36,054 nt of DNA from a virus. The notes beneath the pieces were generated by a model. That model worked only from the letters and a program-made list of their open reading frames with translations, was not told the origin of the DNA and did no database searches. Shown here piece by piece: positions 1,347-36,054 of this stretch (positions are counted from its first letter, which is position 1; each line of letters starts with the position of its first letter). The position numbers and the translations under genes were made by a program. The stretch lies in the IMG/VR virus record IMGVR_UViG_3300037311_000137, positions 1-36,054 of that record, one strand, 5' to 3'.

Positions 1347-1562
1347 TTATTTTTTGTTAAACGGTGAGCGTCCGAGAAGAGCTGCCCAAAGACCCCCCAA
1401 GAGAGGGATTTTTTTAATCTCTTCCAAAGCCTTGTCATCACCCTTCCAAGGGGTAAGAGCTGCAATTGCAACAAATACCGACGCCGCTAGACCTACCCAA
1501 GTTAAAACGGTTGGCACGACCTTGTGCAACCCTTCAATGAACACCAAAATAGCTTCTTCCAT
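1347..1562 (-). CDS. Small two-TM membrane protein, holin-like (71 aa)
   Basis: Two hydrophobic segments (VVPTVLTWVGLAASVFVAIAAL and IPLLGGLWAALLG) and a basic C-terminus. Strong SD AAAGGAGG 5 nt upstream of the ATG. Confidence 0.65.
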   Translation of the reverse strand: MEEAILVFIEGLHKVVPTVLTWVGLAASVFVAIAALTPWKGDDKALEEIKKIPLLGGLWAALLGRSPFNKK

Positions 1563-1636
1563 GAAAGCCTCCTTTTTGGTCAGTTTAACACTAGCCTTGA
1601 TGCGTTCACCTAAATTGTAGCAACATACGGATGAGT

Positions 1637-1652
1637 ATTAAGAAATCTTAAT
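1637..1652. promoter_or_regulatory. 16-bp palindrome ATTAAGAAATCTTAAT (operator-like)
   Basis: ATTAAGA and TCTTAAT are exact reverse complements separated by 2 nt. The site lies in the gap between two membrane-protein genes. Confidence 0.3.
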
Positions 1653-1662
1653 ATTGTGAAGC

Positions 1663-1872
1663 TTACCAGTAGATTCGAACGAGCCACACGCCACCGCACT
1701 GGTAGCCAAGGATGAGGGCTGTGAGGACCGAGATTTTAAGCAGGCCACGGAGGCGCATGAGGCGCAAAAAAGTACCCCACACATCTTTGAAGACGTAGGT
1801 AAGCTCACGTACGAGCGGCTCGTATTCGGGAGCTACTTCAAGGGTGGTGAGGTACTTAATTGCCTTTTTCAT
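1663..1872 (-). CDS. Small protein with a C-terminal hydrophobic helix (69 aa)
   Basis: Track ORF with a C-terminal LLKISVLTALILGY hydrophobic stretch. No clear SD. The start lies immediately downstream of the TnpB element. Confidence 0.5.
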   Translation of the reverse strand: MKKAIKYLTTLEVAPEYEPLVRELTYVFKDVWGTFLRLMRLRGLLKISVLTALILGYQCGGVWLVRIYW

Positions 1873-1899
1873 ACTATTAGTATCGGATATTGCACTCGA

Positions 1900-2100
1900 C
1901 TACGCAATGTGTCTTTTTTGACTCATGCCCCTTTTGACAACCTCCCTCGCTAAAGCGAGCGGATTCCCTCTACAGGCGATGCTTGTCCGCATCGGAGAAT
2001 GTTCATAGCAGCGTTTACGTCACGATCGTGTGTCGATCCGCACTCACTGCACGTCCACTCTCTTATTCCAAGCCCTGCGATACCTTTCGGCCTCGACTCA
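1900..2100 (-). ncRNA. Putative omega-RNA (reRNA) scaffold overlapping the tnpB 3' end (limits approximate)
   Basis: A hairpin at 1943..1963 (UCC(G)CUCGC-UUUA-GCGAG-GGA on the minus-strand RNA) encloses the tnpB stop codon and is followed by GGUUGUCAAAAG. This placement is typical of TnpB guide-RNA scaffolds. Confidence 0.35.
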
Positions 2101-3008
2101 GGCATAGCGCCACAAGTCGAACAGGTTTGGGTTGAATAGCTCTCGTTCACCTCGACATATCTCACGCCATTCATAACTGACTTGTACGCAAGCATTTGTC
2201 GAAACGAGGACCATCCAGAATCTAAAACTAATTTAGCCATTTTGGTTTTTACGAGTGCTGAGGAATTAACATCCCCAACGTAAATGGCATCAAATTGTTT
2301 AACAAGCTCTGTGCTTAGCTTGTGGTGAAAATCTTTTCGTGTGTTTTTAATCTTATCGTGAAGCTTAAGTACAAGGCGCTTTTTGTTTGCTCTTTGCGCT
2401 TTTGCAAGCTTTTCGGCGTACTGTTTTGTGGCCCTCGGTCCCTCAAGTTTTAAGCCGTTTGAAAGCGTCGCAAAGTCTTTAAGCCCAAGATCAATGCCAA
2501 CTTGAGTGCTCTTTGTTTGTTGAGCTTCAGCCTCAAATGTCACAACAAGGTTTAAGTACCATCGACCACGTGAGTCTTGAGAAAAGCTTGAGCCGTCTCG
2601 TATTTTTGCACCAACGGGTAATTCCCTGCTTTTAAAAACGCGAAAGGTTTTTCCAGACCAGACAAAATCATTGCCGTTTGGTTTTATGTGGCGTCCTCTT
2701 AATGGAATCCATCCGGTATTTTTGTGAGACCTCCACCTCAACCACGGACGCTTGTGTTGACTTCGAGACTGTGCGTATTGCAAGCAAACTGCGTTTATTG
2801 TTTGAGAATGTAAATCTAACAACTTTGAGCTACCAGCTGTTAGATTGGTTAAATCAAATCCACTAAGCCACCTTTGACCTCGCTTCACCGCTGTCTTTTG
2901 AGTTTCATTGCAGTAGTTAAATACAAAATTAACCTTGCGCGCCTGTGCGTTTAAAAACCCCGTGTGCGATTTTACGCGAAACTTAAAGGTTTTGGTTTGA
3001 CCGGCCAT
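1950..3008 (-). CDS. tnpB: TnpB (IS200/IS605 OrfB family RNA-guided endonuclease), 352 aa
   Basis: Motifs read directly: GIDLG (RuvC-I Asp), VNESYSTQTCSTCG...CSECG (RuvC-II Glu plus a CxxC..CxxC zinc ribbon) and HDRDVNAAMNIL (RuvC-III Asp). Confidence 0.9.
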   Translation of the reverse strand: MAGQTKTFKFRVKSHTGFLNAQARKVNFVFNYCNETQKTAVKRGQRWLSGFDLTNLTAGSSKLLDLHSQTINAVCLQYAQSRSQHKRPWLRWRSHKNTGWIPLRGRHIKPNGNDFVWSGKTFRVFKSRELPVGAKIRDGSSFSQDSRGRWYLNLVVTFEAEAQQTKSTQVGIDLGLKDFATLSNGLKLEGPRATKQYAEKLAKAQRANKKRLVLKLHDKIKNTRKDFHHKLSTELVKQFDAIYVGDVNSSALVKTKMAKLVLDSGWSSFRQMLAYKSVMNGVRYVEVNESYSTQTCSTCGAMPESRPKGIAGLGIREWTCSECGSTHDRDVNAAMNILRCGQASPVEGIRSL

Positions 3009-3146
3009 CCGACTAAATTACTATTGTTTTATATTAACGTCAAGCGTTACGATTGGGCGCGTTTAAAAGAGAAACCAATAAACCAAAACAGTTTAGTTCA
3101 GATATCTTGACTCGCCGAGTTGGGGTGTTTCGGAGATACTAGATAC

Positions 3147-3401
3147 ATGACAAACAAAATCAAGATTCGAAAGTTTGACAATCACGATGGCCGAGGCACA
3201 CCACCCACGCTTGAGCACGCAGTCCTCCGCGCCGTACGTGACCTGAACGTTCCAGGCTTGGACGTGGCTGATGCTGCTGAGATGATCCTCATGCACATCG
3301 AGGAGAGGCTTTGCCAAGACCTGGCCGTGCTCTCCATGCGGAAGGATCTAAGCAGCGACCGGGTAATTGAGCTTTATGAGAGGCTGTTTCCAAAGGATTA
3401 A
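3147..3401 (+). CDS. Hypothetical helical protein (84 aa) on the opposite strand to its neighbours
   Basis: GC3-rich codons (gac cac ggc ctc cgc gcc ctg) read as coding. Local GC is visibly higher than in the flanks. GGAG lies 11 nt upstream of the ATG. The TTG at 3120 in the track is an alternative start. Confidence 0.4.
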   Translation: MTNKIKIRKFDNHDGRGTPPTLEHAVLRAVRDLNVPGLDVADAAEMILMHIEERLCQDLAVLSMRKDLSSDRVIELYERLFPKD

Positions 3402-3799
3402 CAGGCCTTGATTTGGAGGCCAATTGCAAGCGCAATGCCACCGACCGCGATGACAAGGATGGTCCACTTGACCCATGGAGGGTCCCATTTGAAACGAGGT
3501 TTTGGTTCTAAATCGAAGTCAGGCATAATTTTTAACACGGGCATGTTCAAGTAAGATTCATCAGACACTTCCCCGACCCACTGCGGAGGCAAGCACCCTA
3601 AGTGATCCACCACCAAAGCGTTGGGGTGTCCGGGTCTTGCATAAGGTCCATGAAAGCGTTCTTTTTCAGATTTTTCAAATACTTTCGCCAACTCTTCTTC
3701 AAACTTCTTTGTAGACGCGTCCAGTTGACTGTAAAAATCATTAAGAGCCTTTAGCTCTTTTTCTTCTCTTTGTTTTTTTAGTTTAGAATAAAAGTTCAT
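3398..3799 (-). CDS. Hypothetical protein with a C-terminal TM helix (133 aa)
   Basis: Track ORF with a coiled-coil N-terminus and the C-terminal helix WTILVIAVGGIALAIGL. Confidence 0.7.
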   Translation of the reverse strand: MNFYSKLKKQREEKELKALNDFYSQLDASTKKFEEELAKVFEKSEKERFHGPYARPGHPNALVVDHLGCLPPQWVGEVSDESYLNMPVLKIMPDFDLEPKPRFKWDPPWVKWTILVIAVGGIALAIGLQIKAC

Positions 3800-6439: not shown

Positions 6440-7057
6440 ATGTACCTAAACTGTAACTTCCCCTTGTTGAAGGCCAATTTCAGGCTTGAGTTCGCATACA
6501 ACCTAGAGCGAAAAGCCGGGCTTGTACCTTGCATGATCTTCGGTGTCGCGTCCATTCCGGGGCGTGCTTTAGGGTTCCACTGCATGTTAGAGAACGGCGC
6601 TCAGTTCGCTCGTATGCCCTTACACGCGTTTAGGGTGGGGAAACATGAGGGAGACGATACAACACCCCTCCTAAGCGATCTGGAGGCTTGGGACGCGCTC
6701 TCGTACGACGTGAGCTGCACTCAGTACGCATATCTTAAAAACATGGCCTGCGAGTATTGGGTGAAAGACAAGGGTTGGGTCAAAGCTCAATATTTTGCGA
6801 CGATAGACTTTGCAGAAAACCCCGAAAGACTCACTACGTTTTCAGAAATGCCTGATGAGCATAAGTGTGCGCACGTTCTCATTAGGGAGGACGGGAATAT
6901 TGCAGCTCAACCCAATAACCGCATTCGATGGATCGACAAAGCGTTTATCACAGCCCCCTTCGTTGAAAGACCCGATTTTAAGGTCAACACACACGTCTTT
7001 GAAAGCGAATCAGCTGTGAGTGAAAACTCGGACGCTTACTTCTATCGTGAGAGTTAA
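6440..7057 (+). CDS. Hypothetical early protein (205 aa)
   Basis: Track ORF and first gene of the rightward block. No SD seen, so the start is uncertain. Confidence 0.65.
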   Translation: MYLNCNFPLLKANFRLEFAYNLERKAGLVPCMIFGVASIPGRALGFHCMLENGAQFARMPLHAFRVGKHEGDDTTPLLSDLEAWDALSYDVSCTQYAYLKNMACEYWVKDKGWVKAQYFATIDFAENPERLTTFSEMPDEHKCAHVLIREDGNIAAQPNNRIRWIDKAFITAPFVERPDFKVNTHVFESESAVSENSDAYFYRES

Positions 7058-7113
7058 AATCACTTAACACTTGAGTTGTTGAAAACTTTCATGCCCTGGT
7101 GTTTAAAGCGCTC

Positions 7114-7625: not shown

Positions 7626-8365
7626 AAGCATACCGAAACGGAATTACTAAGACTCAGTTCGTAGCTGAGCTTAAGAAGCACCAAAAGGCAGATCGGTTTC
7701 TTCAAGGTACCTATTGGAATAATGAGGCAAATCGCGGATGTGCTGTGGGGTGCGGCATTAAGTCGATCAATGAATTAAAGCAAAAAAGATTTGGAGCCAA
7801 TAACCACGAAGCGCTTTCTGAATCACTCGGATGGCCTCTTTGGCTCGTGAGACTAGAAGACCGAATATTTGAAAATGTGTCGGTCAAACGATCAAAAACC
7901 TGGCCCGTTGAGGTTGCAGGCGCTATAAAGTCAGGCGCTAATTTAGATCAGGCACTCAACCCTATTCTGATAGAGATTCTAAAGGTTGCAGCGACGGCGG
8001 TTGAAGGAAAAGAAGACCAATATTCTAAGAAATCCTTGAGTGCAATAAAACAAGTTATCAAAGGTTTGTCTGGTAAAGGATCGTTAGACAGAGCTTCTGC
8101 TGCTGCTGCTGCTGCTGCTCGTGCTGCTGCTTATGCTGCTGCTTATGCTGATGTTCGTGCTGCTGCTGATGCTGCTCGTGCTGCTGCTTATGCTGCTGCT
8201 TATGCTGATGTTCGTGCTGCTGCTGATGCTGCTCGTGCTGCTGCTTATGCTGCTGCTTATGCTGCTGCTTGTGCTTCTTTTTCTTTTAACACCCCTGATG
8301 CTTACTCCCACGCAATGGAAACAATCGCCGACAAGGTGCTTGAGGTGTTGAGGAGCACGAAATGA
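7622..8365 (+). CDS. Protein with a globular N-domain (CAVGCG motif) and Ala-rich tandem repeats (247 aa)
   Basis: ATG at 7622 forms an ATGA overlap with the upstream ORF. The C-terminal half is RAAAYAAAYADVRAAADAA x2.6. Confidence 0.8.
   Translation: MKAYRNGITKTQFVAELKKHQKADRFLQGTYWNNEANRGCAVGCGIKSINELKQKRFGANNHEALSESLGWPLWLVRLEDRIFENVSVKRSKTWPVEVAGAIKSGANLDQALNPILIEILKVAATAVEGKEDQYSKKSLSAIKQVIKGLSGKGSLDRASAAAAAAARAAAYAAAYADVRAAADAARAAAYAAAYADVRAAADAARAAAYAAAYAAACASFSFNTPDAYSHAMETIADKVLEVLRSTK
8120..8272. repeat. 57-bp tandem repeat x2.6 (two units 100% identical)
   Basis: Units 8120-8176 and 8177-8233 are identical. A third, partial unit follows. Every Ala codon in 8094-8275 is GCT. Confidence 0.9.
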
Positions 8366-8982
8366 AAAACGAAATTGTAATCGGTGGCGTGAAATACGTG
8401 AGAGCGGATTCTGTGGAAAAAACATTAGGCGTGAATTGGTCCTATGGCGTGAATAGGTCCAATGGCGTGAATGGGTCCTATGGCGTGAATAGGTCCGATG
8501 GCGTGAATGGGTCCGATGGCGTGAATTGGTCCGATGGCGTGAATAGGTCCAATGGCGTGAATGGGTCCTATGGCGTGAATGGGTCCAATGGCGTGAATTG
8601 GTCCCATGGCGTGAATGGGTCCTATGGCGTGAATTGGTCCTATGGCGTGAACAAATCAGCTGGTGTCAATCGTTCGGTTTTTGTCAGCAATCAAAGGGCA
8701 CAAAGCCTGCTCTTTAACAAACCAGTCGATGAGTCACGCGTATCTGACGTCATGGAAAGCTTGCTTCAGCGTTTATGCGGCTGGCGTCCGAAATATAACG
8801 ACATTCACAAGCTTTATCTCGCCAATGGTTCTGACTGGAAATTGACTCCAATATCAGAGGCGAAAGAGCTGTCAAAAGAAGAAGCGTGGGCCGATATGCC
8901 AAAAGAGGCAATTGACTATCTGAAATCAATTCCCGAATTCGATGCCCAAGTGTTTTTTGAGGTTACAGGTTTAAAAGTTTAG
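8362..8982 (+). CDS. Hexapeptide-repeat protein, 14 x G-V-N-x-S-x followed by a ~100-aa C-terminal domain (206 aa)
   Basis: ATGA-coupled to the upstream gene. Fourteen consecutive 6-residue units are read from the translation. Confidence 0.8.
   Translation: MKNEIVIGGVKYVRADSVEKTLGVNWSYGVNRSNGVNGSYGVNRSDGVNGSDGVNWSDGVNRSNGVNGSYGVNGSNGVNWSHGVNGSYGVNWSYGVNKSAGVNRSVFVSNQRAQSLLFNKPVDESRVSDVMESLLQRLCGWRPKYNDIHKLYLANGSDWKLTPISEAKELSKEEAWADMPKEAIDYLKSIPEFDAQVFFEVTGLKV
8428..8679. repeat. 18-bp tandem repeat GGCGTGAATNGGTCCNAT, 12 near-identical plus 2 degenerate units
   Basis: Units listed by hand from 8428. The first 12 differ only at unit positions 10 and 16. Confidence 0.95.
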
Positions 8983-13457: not shown

Positions 13458-13490
13458 ATTAAGGTCAAAGCTTTGATCCTATAAAAAAAG

Positions 13491-13574
13491 TAGCGATGAG
13501 GGGAGTCGAACCCCCAACCTTCTCGTGCCCGTCCATGGTCTAGTCGAGACGCTCTACCCTTGAGCTACACCGCT
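13491..13574 (-). tRNA. tRNA-like gene, 84 nt, canonical acceptor/D/T arms but a 19-nt anticodon loop; identity undetermined
   Basis: Folded by hand: AGCGGUG/CAUCGCU acceptor stem, GCUC-AAGGGUA-GAGC D arm, UCUCG..CGAGA anticodon stem, AGGUU variable loop and GGGGG-UUCGACU-CCCCU T arm. No CCA is encoded, and a T7 run follows. Confidence 0.6.
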
Positions 13575-20422: not shown

Positions 20423-20617
20423 TTAAAAACACTCTTCAATATTGGCAGGAATCTCTACAGACCAGGTTGTTGTGATGTTTTCACATCCTGGTCCCCATAT
20501 GCCCGCACAAGGCCAAATGAAGCCAAAGGTCAAAAGACCCAAACCCTCGACCGTATTGTTTCCGACAAACCCCTCATCAAGAAGCGCTTGCCCGTTTACC
20601 GTCACATCGAAATTCAT
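20423..20617 (-). CDS. Hypothetical small protein (64 aa)
   Basis: Track ORF overlapping the glycosyltransferase 3' end by 41 nt. Confidence 0.45.
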   Translation of the reverse strand: MNFDVTVNGQALLDEGFVGNNTVEGLGLLTFGFIWPCAGIWGPGCENITTTWSVEIPANIEECF

Positions 20618-22802
20618 GCAGCTCCTTTGCTTTCCCTAGCCATTCCTCGGCTACGCGTTCCCAAGAGTGATGCTCAAGATCCATCTTAACACGTGCATAG
20701 GCCTTTTCTCGAATGCGAGCCTCAACAATGTCAGCCCAAGGACCCACATCTTTTTCCTCCTCAGCATCCAAGGTCAAAAGATCCGCACACCCAGCGTCAA
20801 CAAAGGGCTTGAGCGTGTCTTGTAAACCCGCTGTAGCCTTTGCGATTGGATAGACTTTGCTTGCAAGCATCTCTAACGCCGTGATGCAGAATGTCTCAAG
20901 GAAGCGCGTTGGATAGAGCCAGTATTGCTTTGTTGCTAAAGCTTCCCTCAGTACCGATTGCTTCACCCCACCGTGATACTTCACCCAAGGTCTAGCCCGC
21001 ATCATGTCCATCAAGCGCTGAGCCTGTGCTTGCCTTCCATACGCTCCAAAGTGCTCAAGACCATAAAACACATCAAGTGTTGCATTTATGCCACGCTTCC
21101 TCACCTCATCAAGCACAAGCATCGTAAACTCAAGTCCACGGTCAGGGCTTGAAGACCATACAAAGCTATGCTCCTCTTTTTTATCCAAGTCAGGCTCTGG
21201 AAAGAATTGAGACAAGATCCCATTTCTTGTAACCCACACCTTGTCATCTGGAATTGCCACCTGAGACTGAATGAACTTCTTTTGCCATCCAGATAAGACC
21301 GCAATCACATCATAAGTCTCAGTCTGCTCCATGCCCTGAATCAAGATGTCATGACTCCAAGCAATGGTAGGCGCGTCCGTGATCTTGTTGTTGTGCCTCC
21401 ACGCAATATGAAGGTATGGCTTGTTTGTGGCCATGTAATCCGCTGTGACTTGAGCCGGAGCGTACACAACCCCGTCTTCCGCAACCTTTTGAGCTTTAAC
21501 ATTCCCAAACACAATGACTTGTCTGTGGGGTTCCTTTTTCTTAATCCAATGCGCAAGCCAAATAGCAGCGGTTTCGCTTCCACCTGTGAGCTTCTGGAAG
21601 TAAGAATCATAATCCCAATCATGCCAGCCCATGCCAGGCACACACGTGATCACGATGTCATCACACTCTTTTGCGGTCTTGTAAGCCGTCTGCAAATACT
21701 CAATGCGTGACAATTCTTGTTCTATTTGAGGAGACTGCATTGCAAAGTCTTGTTTACCTTGCTCAAGATAGGCTCTCGCTCTCGCGAAATCTCCAAGTGT
21801 CATGTAGATCTGAATAAGCTTTTCAGTCGGATAAGGACCGTACACTAAAGGATTTGAGAATATCGCGCTCATGTGCTGTTGCTGTGGCATGACACACATT
21901 CGAGCTGCTTCATAAAACGGTATCGCATCATGGAAGCGATTCTGAGACGCGTAGGCATCTCCAATCATCACATGAAACTCAGCCCTGGTCGGTGCAAGCT
22001 GCAATCCCATATGAGCGACGTCAATCGCCCGTGCGGGTTGATTACTCATTGCATAGGCCTGAGCCATGAATTGAAGCGCCATCGTTCTATCGTGGCCCTC
22101 AAGGCGTCTGTCAGCAGAGGCAAGCTTAAGCTCTTGAATGGCGTCTACATGCTTGCCATTCTCAAAAAGCTCTTTTCCGTAGTAGTAGCGCATGCGTGCG
22201 TCAAGCTTTTCGCCAGACTTAACCTTGTCCTCAATGATGGAAAGGTTTCGACTTCTATCTCCTGCTAAATCAGCTTCGGTGCGCTTGTGTACGATTTGCC
22301 AAGCAGGACTAAATTGAACAATCGGCGCTTTTGTGAGCCCCGGCTTTGCTACAATTCCTTCGTGGATAAAATACTTCCACTGAAAACGTCCATCGTTCTT
22401 AATGATGCGCTCTCTCGTAAACACACACGTTGGTTGACCTTGTGCGTTTGTGGCATACCAGTAATTTGCAAGCCACATGTCCGCTTCACTTAGCATCTCA
22501 TCCCTAAACGCAATAAAGCGCTCACGGCTTGATAGCACGTCATCGCCATCCATCCACATGATGTAATCAGTCTTTGGGTGAGAGAACGCAAAGTTACGTG
22601 CTTTTGCAAAGTCATCACACCACTCGAAGTGATGGACGATACAGCCTAAGGGTTCAGCCACCTGAACCGTGTCATCCTCTGAACCTGTGTCTGTAATGTG
22701 AATCTCGTCAAAACATCCTTCAATTGACTTCAATAACTCAGGCAAATGATGTGCTTCATTACGCACAATCATTGCCAAAGCGATGGACGGGCGCTTTTGC
22801 AT
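20577..22802 (-). CDS. Tri-domain glycosyltransferase: N-terminal GT2 (GT-A), central TPR repeats, C-terminal GT4-like (GT-B) (741 aa)
   Basis: GT2 domain: IALAMIVRNEAHHL...ITDTGSEDDT...FAKARNFAF...WMDGDDVL. TPR-like helices: YYYGKELFENGKHVDAIQELKLA and YASQNRFHDAIPFYEAA. GT4 domain: LTGGSETAAIWLA and the ExxxxxxxE motif ETFCITALEML. ATG at 22802 has an AAGGAG upstream. Confidence 0.88.
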   Translation of the reverse strand: MQKRPSIALAMIVRNEAHHLPELLKSIEGCFDEIHITDTGSEDDTVQVAEPLGCIVHHFEWCDDFAKARNFAFSHPKTDYIMWMDGDDVLSSRERFIAFRDEMLSEADMWLANYWYATNAQGQPTCVFTRERIIKNDGRFQWKYFIHEGIVAKPGLTKAPIVQFSPAWQIVHKRTEADLAGDRSRNLSIIEDKVKSGEKLDARMRYYYGKELFENGKHVDAIQELKLASADRRLEGHDRTMALQFMAQAYAMSNQPARAIDVAHMGLQLAPTRAEFHVMIGDAYASQNRFHDAIPFYEAARMCVMPQQQHMSAIFSNPLVYGPYPTEKLIQIYMTLGDFARARAYLEQGKQDFAMQSPQIEQELSRIEYLQTAYKTAKECDDIVITCVPGMGWHDWDYDSYFQKLTGGSETAAIWLAHWIKKKEPHRQVIVFGNVKAQKVAEDGVVYAPAQVTADYMATNKPYLHIAWRHNNKITDAPTIAWSHDILIQGMEQTETYDVIAVLSGWQKKFIQSQVAIPDDKVWVTRNGILSQFFPEPDLDKKEEHSFVWSSSPDRGLEFTMLVLDEVRKRGINATLDVFYGLEHFGAYGRQAQAQRLMDMMRARPWVKYHGGVKQSVLREALATKQYWLYPTRFLETFCITALEMLASKVYPIAKATAGLQDTLKPFVDAGCADLLTLDAEEEKDVGPWADIVEARIREKAYARVKMDLEHHSWERVAEEWLGKAKELHEFRCDGKRASAS

Positions 22803-22809
22803 GTGATGC

Positions 22810-23286
22810 TTACTCCTTGGCGACACTTGTTTGAGTGTTTGTCAGAGTCTTTTCACGTATCAGCTCAGTGCCGCCTCTCGCATAGATACTCCAAAGACCT
22901 GAGTTTTTATTGAAGCTAGCATCACCTTCTTGGAATTCAAGGTTACGTTTTGCAAACCCCATAAGAGTTGTGGGGTCTACAGCCGTGTCACCAAAGGAAT
23001 CAGTCACAACACCGACGCGTTGATCGGTTACTTGCAGTGGGTCAAGAACACCTACGATGTAACGGTCAGAGTCTGCAAGCCCCGCTCCACCATCCATTTG
23101 CCACAAGATGCTTTGTGTGGGCCCGTACTCAAATCGGTAAAGACCTGAGCCTGCTGGCGTCTCTGTAATTCCAGGTGCTGTAATCGCACTCACACCATTG
23201 ATTGCAAAGATCGTGAGCGTAGGCGTAAGCCCCGTGTTGTCCGCTGGGTTTCCACTTCCAAAGCGTGCGTAATAAAATTTACTCAT
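22810..23286 (-). CDS. Structural hypothetical protein (158 aa)
   Basis: Track ORF overlapping the upstream gene by 8 nt. Confidence 0.75.
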   Translation of the reverse strand: MSKFYYARFGSGNPADNTGLTPTLTIFAINGVSAITAPGITETPAGSGLYRFEYGPTQSILWQMDGGAGLADSDRYIVGVLDPLQVTDQRVGVVTDSFGDTAVDPTTLMGFAKRNLEFQEGDASFNKNSGLWSIYARGGTELIREKTLTNTQTSVAKE

Positions 23287-35930: not shown

Positions 35931-36054
35931 CGTGCAGGTGTCGGTGCGTTCACTTGGTACTTAAAACAGGCCATGTCTTAAAACCACGTCGAACCGTTTT
36001 CATGAATATTAAGACTTTTAACGATTGTCAAAGATTATTCGTTTGAGATTACTG
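35931..36054. repeat. Right copy of the 124-bp direct terminal repeat
   Basis: Identical to 1..124. Confidence 0.95.

Follow-up and report, generated by a model that had tools for sequence, protein, structure and literature searches.

The virus genome IMGVR_UViG_3300037311_000137, analysed here over its full 36,054 nucleotides (nt; hereafter the window), carries on its minus strand a gene, tnpB, coding for a TnpB protein of 352 amino acids (aa; 1950..3008). The 3' end of this gene doubles as the template of an omega-RNA scaffold, whose conserved 3' module lies at 1934..2017 (-), and the region upstream of it (3009..3141, -) is a decayed left end of the type found in insertion sequences (ISs) of the IS200/IS605 family. 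No gene for the transposase TnpA is present in the genome. We lean towards the reading that the stretch from about 3141 to 1934 (-) is a non-autonomous, immobile member of this family whose TnpB nuclease and omega-RNA remain functional, and which spreads or is retained by non-restorative homing. Replication genes lie upstream of tnpB, and downstream there is a run of small, mostly orphan open reading frames (ORFs) with predicted membrane segments. A first-pass annotation of the same DNA had placed the element at a boundary between replication genes and a membrane cassette, which is roughly right, the supposed membrane cassette being this run of small ORFs.

The protein is a TnpB, as that annotation had proposed. 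It matches the Pfam families OrfB_IS605 (1e-16, 61.6 bits; cutoff 30.5) and Cas12f1-like_TNB (3.7e-25, 88.3 bits; cutoff 26.3) and the NCBIfam family guided_TnpB (E 2.7e-70, 237.6 bits; cutoff 100), and all the motifs originally quoted are present, the set comprising GIDLG (171-175), VNESY (287-291), CSTCG (296), CSECG (320) and HDRDVN (327-332). The best match among natural proteins of solved structure is the TnpB of ISDra2 (8BF8/8EXA/8H1J, E 2.6e-26). In this alignment the RuvC-I residue D173 (codon 2492-2490, -) pairs with D191, and the HDRD around the RuvC-III residue D330 (codon 2021-2019, -) pairs with the RuvC-III DRD motif. The catalytic E278 of ISDra2, in contrast, aligns with G245 (codon 2276-2274, -; "YVGDVN"), and the canonical RuvC-II position lacks a glutamate. 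The RuvC triad initially described as intact is therefore so only in a rearranged form: D173, D330 and a relocated glutamate, E289 (codon 2144-2142, -), are kept, but the canonical RuvC-II glutamate is a glycine. E289 sits 44 residues C-terminal of G245, just ahead of a CxxC…CxxC zinc finger (residues 296/299/320/323).

Most of the relatives compared share this arrangement. D173 and D330 are invariant in 51 of 51 relatives, among which C296, C299, C320 and C323 are conserved as well; 44 of them combine G245 with E289, the other seven have E245 with R or Q at 289, and no other combination occurs. A glycine in place of the RuvC-II glutamate characterizes the RIIr-5 major clade, for which an alternative glutamate, located later in the RuvC fold, was predicted to extend into the active site (Altae-Tran et al. 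2023, PMC10691335), and in the structure of Fanzor2 the catalytic glutamate has moved about 50 residues C-terminally (PMC11832414). D330 corresponds by position to Asp501 of Fanzor2, assuming no net gap over the matched stretch. The residue pattern thus assigns the active site to a rearranged, Fanzor2-like RIIr-5 type, in which E289 is predicted to substitute for G245. As the glycine marks a described sub-group, it does not exclude the protein from the TnpB family.

The omega-RNA module consists of the 3' end of tnpB and the next 16 nt. Read along the minus strand, it contains helix 1 (1994-1977), helix 2 (1976-1967), a terminal hairpin UCC(G)CUCGC-UUUA-GCGAG-GGA (1963-1943) and a tail GGUUGUCAA (1942-1934); upstream, the scaffold probably extends to about 2130-2160. 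Its DNA overlaps the last ~70 codons of the gene. The hairpin had already been noticed in the first reading of the sequence with the TAG stop codon (1952-1950) in its loop and GGUUGUCAA directly after it; two bases of the stop indeed lie in the loop, and the third in the 3' arm. When the tnpB 3' ends of phage, IMG/VR and bacterial loci are aligned, nucleotide conservation continues through the stop codon and the hairpin and ceases abruptly after …GGAGGATGTCAA. Fifty-six distinct related loci have the same architecture of a hairpin followed by GTCAA, and the sequences right after GTCAA are unrelated. RNAalifold applied to 42 sequences recovers three successive 3' helices rich in compensatory changes. 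The 17 helix pairs are paired in 98% of the cells, against 46-62% when the partners are slid, and double changes (carried by 13 of the 17 pairs) are seen in 136 cells, against 8-20 with slid partners; none of 500 shuffles reached the observed helix score. Because Rfam, searched at gathering and permissive thresholds, contained no matching omega-RNA family, we built our own covariance model, trained on 38 relatives with the window copy excluded. Over the whole genome it identifies a single site, 1934-2017 (-), with 87.8 bits (E 2.8e-17), the remaining matches having E > 3. This score and the covarying helices bear out the earlier proposal of a scaffold that overlaps the end of the gene. Antisense ORFs at 1938-2136 (+), opposite the tnpB 3' end, have tblastn matches in all loci of the clade described below (57-76% identity), which most simply reflect the conserved nucleotides of the omega-RNA region and not a gene.

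On its right side the element ends at 1934 (…GTCAA). An IS608-type right end carries GAAT 5' of a hairpin and a terminal TCAA, which form a pair of guide and cleavage tetranucleotides. Both are present at 1934..1966 (-), with GAAT at 1966-1963 and TCAA at 1937-1934. The boundary rule was checked on an empty site in phages: the Ralstonia phage Dimitile carries a related IS, its sisters Darius and YL1 are uninterrupted, and their sequence AAAACCCCCTACTTAG… is identical to the Dimitile flank directly after GTCAA.

With the right end at 1934, the guide template starts at 1933. By analogy with ISDra2 the guide would be 16-20 nt long, in which case its template AAGGGGCATGAGTCAA(AAAA) occupies 1914..1933 (-), with 16 nt corresponding to 1933-1918 and 20 nt to 1933-1914. 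This region is intergenic and lies upstream of a 69-aa ORF (1872..1663). There is no second match to the guide within the genome at up to 3 mismatches. On the opposite side of the element, the flank at the position of the transposon-adjacent motif (TAM) is GTATC (3142..3146, -). The corresponding flanks of the relatives read T-N-A-Y-C, with TTATC in the closest complete IS (locus L128), and their N covaries with the first base of an NAAG tetranucleotide in the left end (T:A, G:C, C:G), suggesting a TAM of about T-N-A-Y-C. The predicted empty allele would then be …CATGTATC or TTATC joined directly to AAGGGGCATGAG…. A direct repeat in the same region, GTCAAAAG (1938-1931) and GTCAAAAAAG (1922-1913), was rejected as a feature. 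It does exist, as first reported, but it does not mark the right end or the guide: GTCAAAA occurs 12 times in the genome against 11.5 expected, the GTCAA of the first copy forms the terminus of the right end, the second copy falls inside the guide-template region, and a second downstream GTCAA-type copy is not a regular feature of the flanks of relatives.

Complete relatives, found at several bacterial loci and in the Ralstonia phage Hyacinthe, carry a gene for a divergent 138-aa Y1 TnpA (HVHLL…SPSY) between the left end and tnpB. A hidden Markov model (HMM) of this cognate TnpA finds nothing in the six frames of the complete genome (best E 1.5), in agreement with the first-pass annotation, and Pfam and PHROG scans of the neighbouring proteins revealed no TnpA either. 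The left ends of 29 relatives consist of T-N-A-Y-C, about 10 nt, NAAG, a GC-rich hairpin and GGATAGCG. In the window, TAGTATCTCC-GAAAC-ACCCC… at 3141-3122 (-) resembles the 5' part of these left ends, and AAGATATCTGAAC at 3108-3096 (-) resembles the GGATAGC box that follows the hairpin. The remnant is most similar to the left ends of loci L037, L081, L096 and L128, lacks the 3' arm of the hairpin and has GAAAC instead of NAAG. Folded as DNA, it reaches -3.3 kcal/mol (z -0.4), whereas relatives reach -9 to -17 kcal/mol; in the hairpin-energy scan most controls, but not all, stand apart from the solo copies, one control (L009) scoring -5.3. A plain alignment of the upstream regions was uninformative for the left end, and an nhmmer profile of left ends (from 6, then 29 relatives) misses the remnant, the positive control L128 being itself barely detected (E 0.13). 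The element cannot move by itself, because the genome has no cognate TnpA and the left-end hairpin has decayed; the inability had originally been proposed from the missing transposase, and the lost hairpin adds to it.

Very probably, the element is not mobilisable with TnpA in trans either. Movement of a non-autonomous IS by a related TnpA of the host, with TnpB restoring the element after excision, would fit the full IS608-like right end (GAAT, hairpin and TCAA) and the TAM-like GTATC next to a left-end-like segment (…CTCC-GAAAC-ACCCC) at the place where a left end is expected. We nevertheless regard it as very improbable, as the left-end hairpin cannot form, a C stands at the position of the G in the NAAG guide tetranucleotide, and the first position of the TAM is G and not the invariant T. 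In addition, three related loci (L118, L121 and L124) leave no space for a left end, because an upstream ORF overlaps tnpB or ends 0-11 nt before it.

A promoter-like site lies within the remnant at 3015..3043 (-), with TTGACG at 3043-3038, a 17-nt spacer and TAATTT at 3020-3015, 6 nt before the ATG; it would give a near-leaderless transcript of tnpB and omega-RNA. The related locus L123 has a similar -10-like element near its start codon. Next to the remnant, an 84-aa orphan ORF (3147-3401, +; 3120-3401 from a TTG start) is oriented opposite to all its neighbours. Its ATG is 1 nt from GTATC, its stop overlaps that of a convergent 133-aa ORF by 4 nt, and its promoter, if any, would fall inside the left-end remnant. 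This 84/93-aa divergent ORF was considered as a TnpA remnant or an Arc-like regulator and rejected, since it gives no Pfam, PHROG or TnpA-HMM signal and lies outside the left-end remnant.

Among 5.8 billion proteins searched, seven have 67-72% aligned identity to the TnpB of the window, the remaining hits having at most 63%. The seven are 64-88% identical among themselves and form with it one clade of eight. Most members are single tnpB genes in phage contigs without a left end. Loci L118-120 lie beside genes for ERF, the small and large terminase and the portal protein, L121-122 beside Prim-Pol, integrase and large terminase genes, and L124 beside endolysin and HNH genes; L123 has phage-type genes and is probably a phage contig, and L125 and L127 are short contigs with small ORFs. 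L128 differs in being a 1.6-kb contig that contains a complete IS, with TnpA, a left-end hairpin and the flank TTTATC. No flanking gene is common to the genome and the clade loci. A scan by folding energy detected no left-end-type hairpin in the solo copies of the clade, a weak test in that one control also scores low. All clade copies keep the D/G/E/C4/D residues (C4 denoting the zinc-finger cysteines) and the scaffold (…CGATACGGACAAGTATCG-CCTGTTGAGG-hairpin-TTGTCAA), in which the hairpin covaries. Their guide regions, in contrast, are wholly different from one another and simply correspond to the local flank. The ratio of nonsynonymous to synonymous substitution rates (dN/dS) in the clade is 0.07-0.18, and the sole unsaturated pair, L125/L127, gives 0.088 at a dS of 0.89. 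The clade tnpB genes are under purifying selection, which fits selection on the protein. Selection had been suggested from the retained catalytic residues of the single copy, and the relatives, with no decay at the catalytic positions and a dN/dS of about 0.1, agree with it. The GC content of tnpB varies from 36 to 45% in the clade and tracks the flanks, and that of the window copy matches its phage.

Three features of individual clade loci are worth recording. At L123 a direct repeat of about 25 nt, AAGTCAAATTAAGTTAT(T/G)GTTAAGA, surrounds the solo tnpB (about 7060-7100 and 8285-8310); the upstream copy comes right after a TAM-like TTTATC and the downstream one about 60 nt beyond the right end, and the repeat could be either a regulatory repeat of the phage or a recombination footprint. 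At L121 (8001-9101) the tnpB frame continues through GTCAA and the guide region, giving a 366-aa protein whose C-terminal extension is encoded by guide-template DNA. In L128 the divergent tnpA and tnpB genes are separated by a 23-nt spacer (492-514) that holds a palindrome, CCAATATATATTGG, a candidate operator or promoter.

That the element is a neutral passenger, an insertion stranded after a host supplied TnpA, without function and simply too young to have accrued disabling mutations, is in our view rather unlikely. Elements of this kind most often exist as solo tnpB, 89% of TnpB clusters being immobile (PMC10691335), and TnpB relatives are spread over 453 phage records; a complete IS with TnpA (L128) lies within the clade, Ralstonia phages show recent insertions of related ISs, and the phage nearest by its helicase (50% identity) lacks tnpB in the corresponding region. 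Neutral decay, however, should strike both ends and the ORF alike, whereas the left end of the window copy is unrecognisable, its right end and scaffold score 87.8 bits, and the ORF has lost none of its catalytic or zinc-binding residues. At least six further clade members, set in unrelated phages, likewise lack the left end while keeping scaffold and ORF intact. Moreover, the GC content matching that of the phage speaks against a very recent arrival from a bacterial relative of 55-65% GC. The repeated asymmetric preservation therefore argues against pure neutrality, an argument tempered by the mobile clade member.

A bolder reading would be a TnpB-omega-RNA lineage adapted to phages, which shed TnpA and the left end, retains nuclease and scaffold under purifying selection and persists or spreads from phage to phage by RNA-guided homing or marker exclusion during co-infection. 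We put this forward only tentatively, as possible but doubtful. Less credible still is exaptation as a regulator or as a weapon against competitors or the host, with the guide fixed on a target located elsewhere that TnpB binds, as TldR does, or cuts. Phage-encoded TnpB derivatives with regulatory roles do exist (TldR), and at L118 and L121 tnpB sits tightly within phage operons in which start and stop codons overlap, as is typical of domesticated genes. Exaptation appears improbable given that the catalytic residues and the full C-terminus are retained, unlike in TldR, that the guide regions differ wholly between clade members, as local flank would, and that the guide of the window copy has no match in viral contigs and a sole match in metagenomes that lacks a TAM.

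Returning to the functional but immobile element that we favour, its persistence can be pictured as follows. Transcription of tnpB would start at the promoter-like site just upstream or result from read-through, and the 3' part of the transcript would fold as the scaffold, bound and probably trimmed by TnpB. With 16-20 nt of the flank (AAGGGGCATGAGTCAA…) as guide, the complex would cut DNA in which a 5' TAM (about T-N-A-Y-C, for example TTATC) precedes the guide sequence. Its target would be the uninterrupted allele of the same site in a related phage genome without the element; the carrier genome would escape cutting because GTCAA, and not a TAM, precedes its own copy of the target. In a mixed infection the cut genome would be lost, or repaired from the genome carrying tnpB, and the phage codes for both ERF and SSB. 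The element would in this way spread or persist without TnpA. Such TnpA-independent spread of IS605 elements by TnpB cutting the orthologous site has been termed 'non-restorative homing', with evidence cited from plasmids (PMC13565253). The pay-off may thus lie in homing, or in the cutting of competitors, as the first-pass annotation had also supposed.

Several observations weigh against this scenario. The flank at the TAM position starts with G, T-N-A-Y-C being present in 29 of 29 relatives, and the promoter-like site does not reach the threshold used in the consensus scan. The 20-mer guide has no match among viral contigs, and the one match in metagenomes is to A-rich DNA without a TAM and was judged to be due to chance. 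An empty site was sought and not found, through the adjacent 133-aa protein, which is an orphan with no homologue among the 5.8 billion proteins, and through the helicase, whose best relative is 50% identical and encoded on a contig with a different gene order and without tnpB. We found no report, in the literature searched, of nuclease activity for a bacterial TnpB with glycine at the RuvC-II position; the function of this type is a structural prediction (PMC10691335) backed by analogy with Fanzor2. Finally, the purifying selection may date mainly from a mobile phase, because the clade includes the complete IS L128, and the phage copies may be independent recent strandings. Two further routes to an empty site were equally fruitless: the helicase relatives in IMG/VR have no small ORF in common with the genome, and IMG/VR contains nothing closely related to the HNH protein next to L118, the closest TnpB locus.

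The genome that carries the element, whose record derives from a Logan assembly of run SRR13020431, has identical termini, positions 1-124 being an exact direct copy of 35931-36054. This repeat reflects either terminal redundancy or the overlapping ends of a circular assembly, and the genome is accordingly complete at about 35.93 kb (or a circular assembly). It codes for a P22-type portal, a major head protein and internal virion proteins, and its replication and recombination genes include ERF, SSB, a DnaB-like helicase and a replication initiator. No close relative of the genome was found among the GenBank phages searched. A CRISPR array, such as would accompany a Type V CRISPR-Cas (Cas12) system, was sought within and near 1500-3500 and no repeat array was found. 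Elsewhere in the genome, a 205-aa protein adjoining the replication genes (6440-7057, +) matches phrog_3704 ('ferredoxin', E 4.6e-52). Two adjacent plus-strand ORFs contain in-frame tandem repeats, the first a GCT-rich array at 8093-8278 with units of 6, 12 and 57 nt, and the second 12.4 copies of an 18-nt unit at 8428-8651, in an ORF that matches collagen-like tail-fibre PHROGs. An 85-nt tRNA gene at 13490-13574 (-; Rfam tRNA, 53.2 bits) is reported by ARAGORN as tRNA-??? with a four-base anticodon (agac), which is unusual. A 749-aa double glycosyltransferase is encoded within the structural module (20577-22826, -).

The arrangement is less unusual than the first-pass annotation implied, since solo tnpB is the commonest form and tblastn finds TnpB relatives in 453 of 50,697 phage records. 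It is already known that tnpB genes are common in phages and that solo copies are the rule, and the active site with glycine and a relocated glutamate has been described. The extra interest is modest and resides in a small, mostly phage-borne clade in which the left end has been lost while nuclease and scaffold are under selection. Papers on phage-borne tnpB record the genes and speculate on their role, which is experimentally untested in the literature searched, and a 2026 review treats 'non-restorative homing' into co-infecting phages as theoretically possible (PMC13565253). The locus and its seven clade relatives provide a defined test case, with a complete small phage genome, a rearranged active site, a bounded scaffold, a predicted guide and TAM and no transposase, and the clade opens the untested idea of RNA-guided homing between phages to direct test. 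An active nuclease would mean that a bacterial TnpB with glycine and a relocated glutamate works, and it could then be demonstrated that an RNA-guided nuclease acts selfishly or competitively between phages; an inactive one would make the locus one more stranded IS. Should the phage-adapted lineage prove true, it would parallel, with an RNA guide, the free-standing homing endonucleases of T-even phages.

Among characterized systems, the TnpB of ISDra2 (PDB 8EXA/8H1J; Karvelis 2021, PMC8612924) belongs to the same Pfam and NCBIfam families and shares the RuvC-I aspartate, the DRDxN motif and the four-cysteine zinc finger. Its scaffold likewise overlaps the gene's 3' end and terminates at the right end, with the guide taken from the flank. 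It differs in having E278 where the present protein has Gly245 and in its TAM, TTGAT against the likely T-N-A-Y-C, and the phage copy is without TnpA or a functional left end. RIIr-5 (PMC10691335) and Fanzor2/'TnpB2' (PMC11832414) are closer in their active sites, the present protein too having glycine for the RuvC-II glutamate and an alternative glutamate further on (in its case about 44 residues, just before the zinc finger), but the published RIIr-5 clade is described as normally mobile, unlike the phage copy. IS608 of Helicobacter pylori has the same kind of right end, with GAAT, an imperfect hairpin and TCAA, and in relatives of the present element the cleavage tetranucleotide of the left end covaries with an NAAG box at the foot of the hairpin; the target or TAM is NAYC-like in this family, against TTAC in IS608, and only the right end is kept in the phage copy. 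TldR is also a phage-resident gene derived from TnpB, with a guide RNA and no transposase, but it has lost catalytic residues and the C-terminus, in contrast to the full-length protein described here with D173, E289 and D330.

Cultured phages carry members of the same TnpB family (45-49% aa identity) with the same right-end motif. They include the ISs of the Ralstonia phages Hyacinthe and Dimitile (annotated as ISPa83/ISMex20-like) and solo copies in Raharianne, Heva, the Salmonella phage LPSTLL and the Acinetobacter phage HFM1. These are recent insertions, 99% identical between phages, some with TnpA and intact left ends and with empty sites in sister phages, whereas the copy described here is older, has no left end and matches its phage in GC content. 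Hyacinthe (L002, 2461-4082) and Raharianne (L129, 2461-4126), which belong to one species, have 99.9% identical flanks, but the TnpB elements between these flanks differ (~66% nt identity); in the former a full IS with TnpA truncates the gp62 homologue, the latter has an intact gp62 and a different solo tnpB, and it looks as if one element had been replaced by another. In Dimitile (L130, ~1503-3126) CTACC precedes the IS, whereas at ~1500-1510 in the IS-less sisters Heva, Darius, YL1, RPZH6 and p2110 (L131-L135) CTACAACAC precedes the guide-matching AAAACCCCCTAC…. This 4-nt indel falls exactly at the TAM position, and the C-run of the target varies in some of them, so that the empty alleles of these sisters may be TAM-incompatible and hence immune to cutting. 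In the 'Bacillus phage vB_BspP_Dartukuta' (L001, MW749009.1) the tnpB 3' end and scaffold (1200-1435) are of proteobacterial type, with 78% nt identity to the genome copy, and a neighbouring gene is annotated as 'outer membrane lytic protein', which is odd for the recorded Bacillus host. Lastly, the free-standing homing endonucleases Seg and Mob of phage T4, to which such systems have been likened in the OMEGA literature, cut the allele that lacks their gene in a co-infecting relative, into which the gene is then copied by recombination, as proposed here for tnpB. Recognition by Seg and Mob is a property of the protein, whereas for the present element it would reside in an RNA guide and a TAM.

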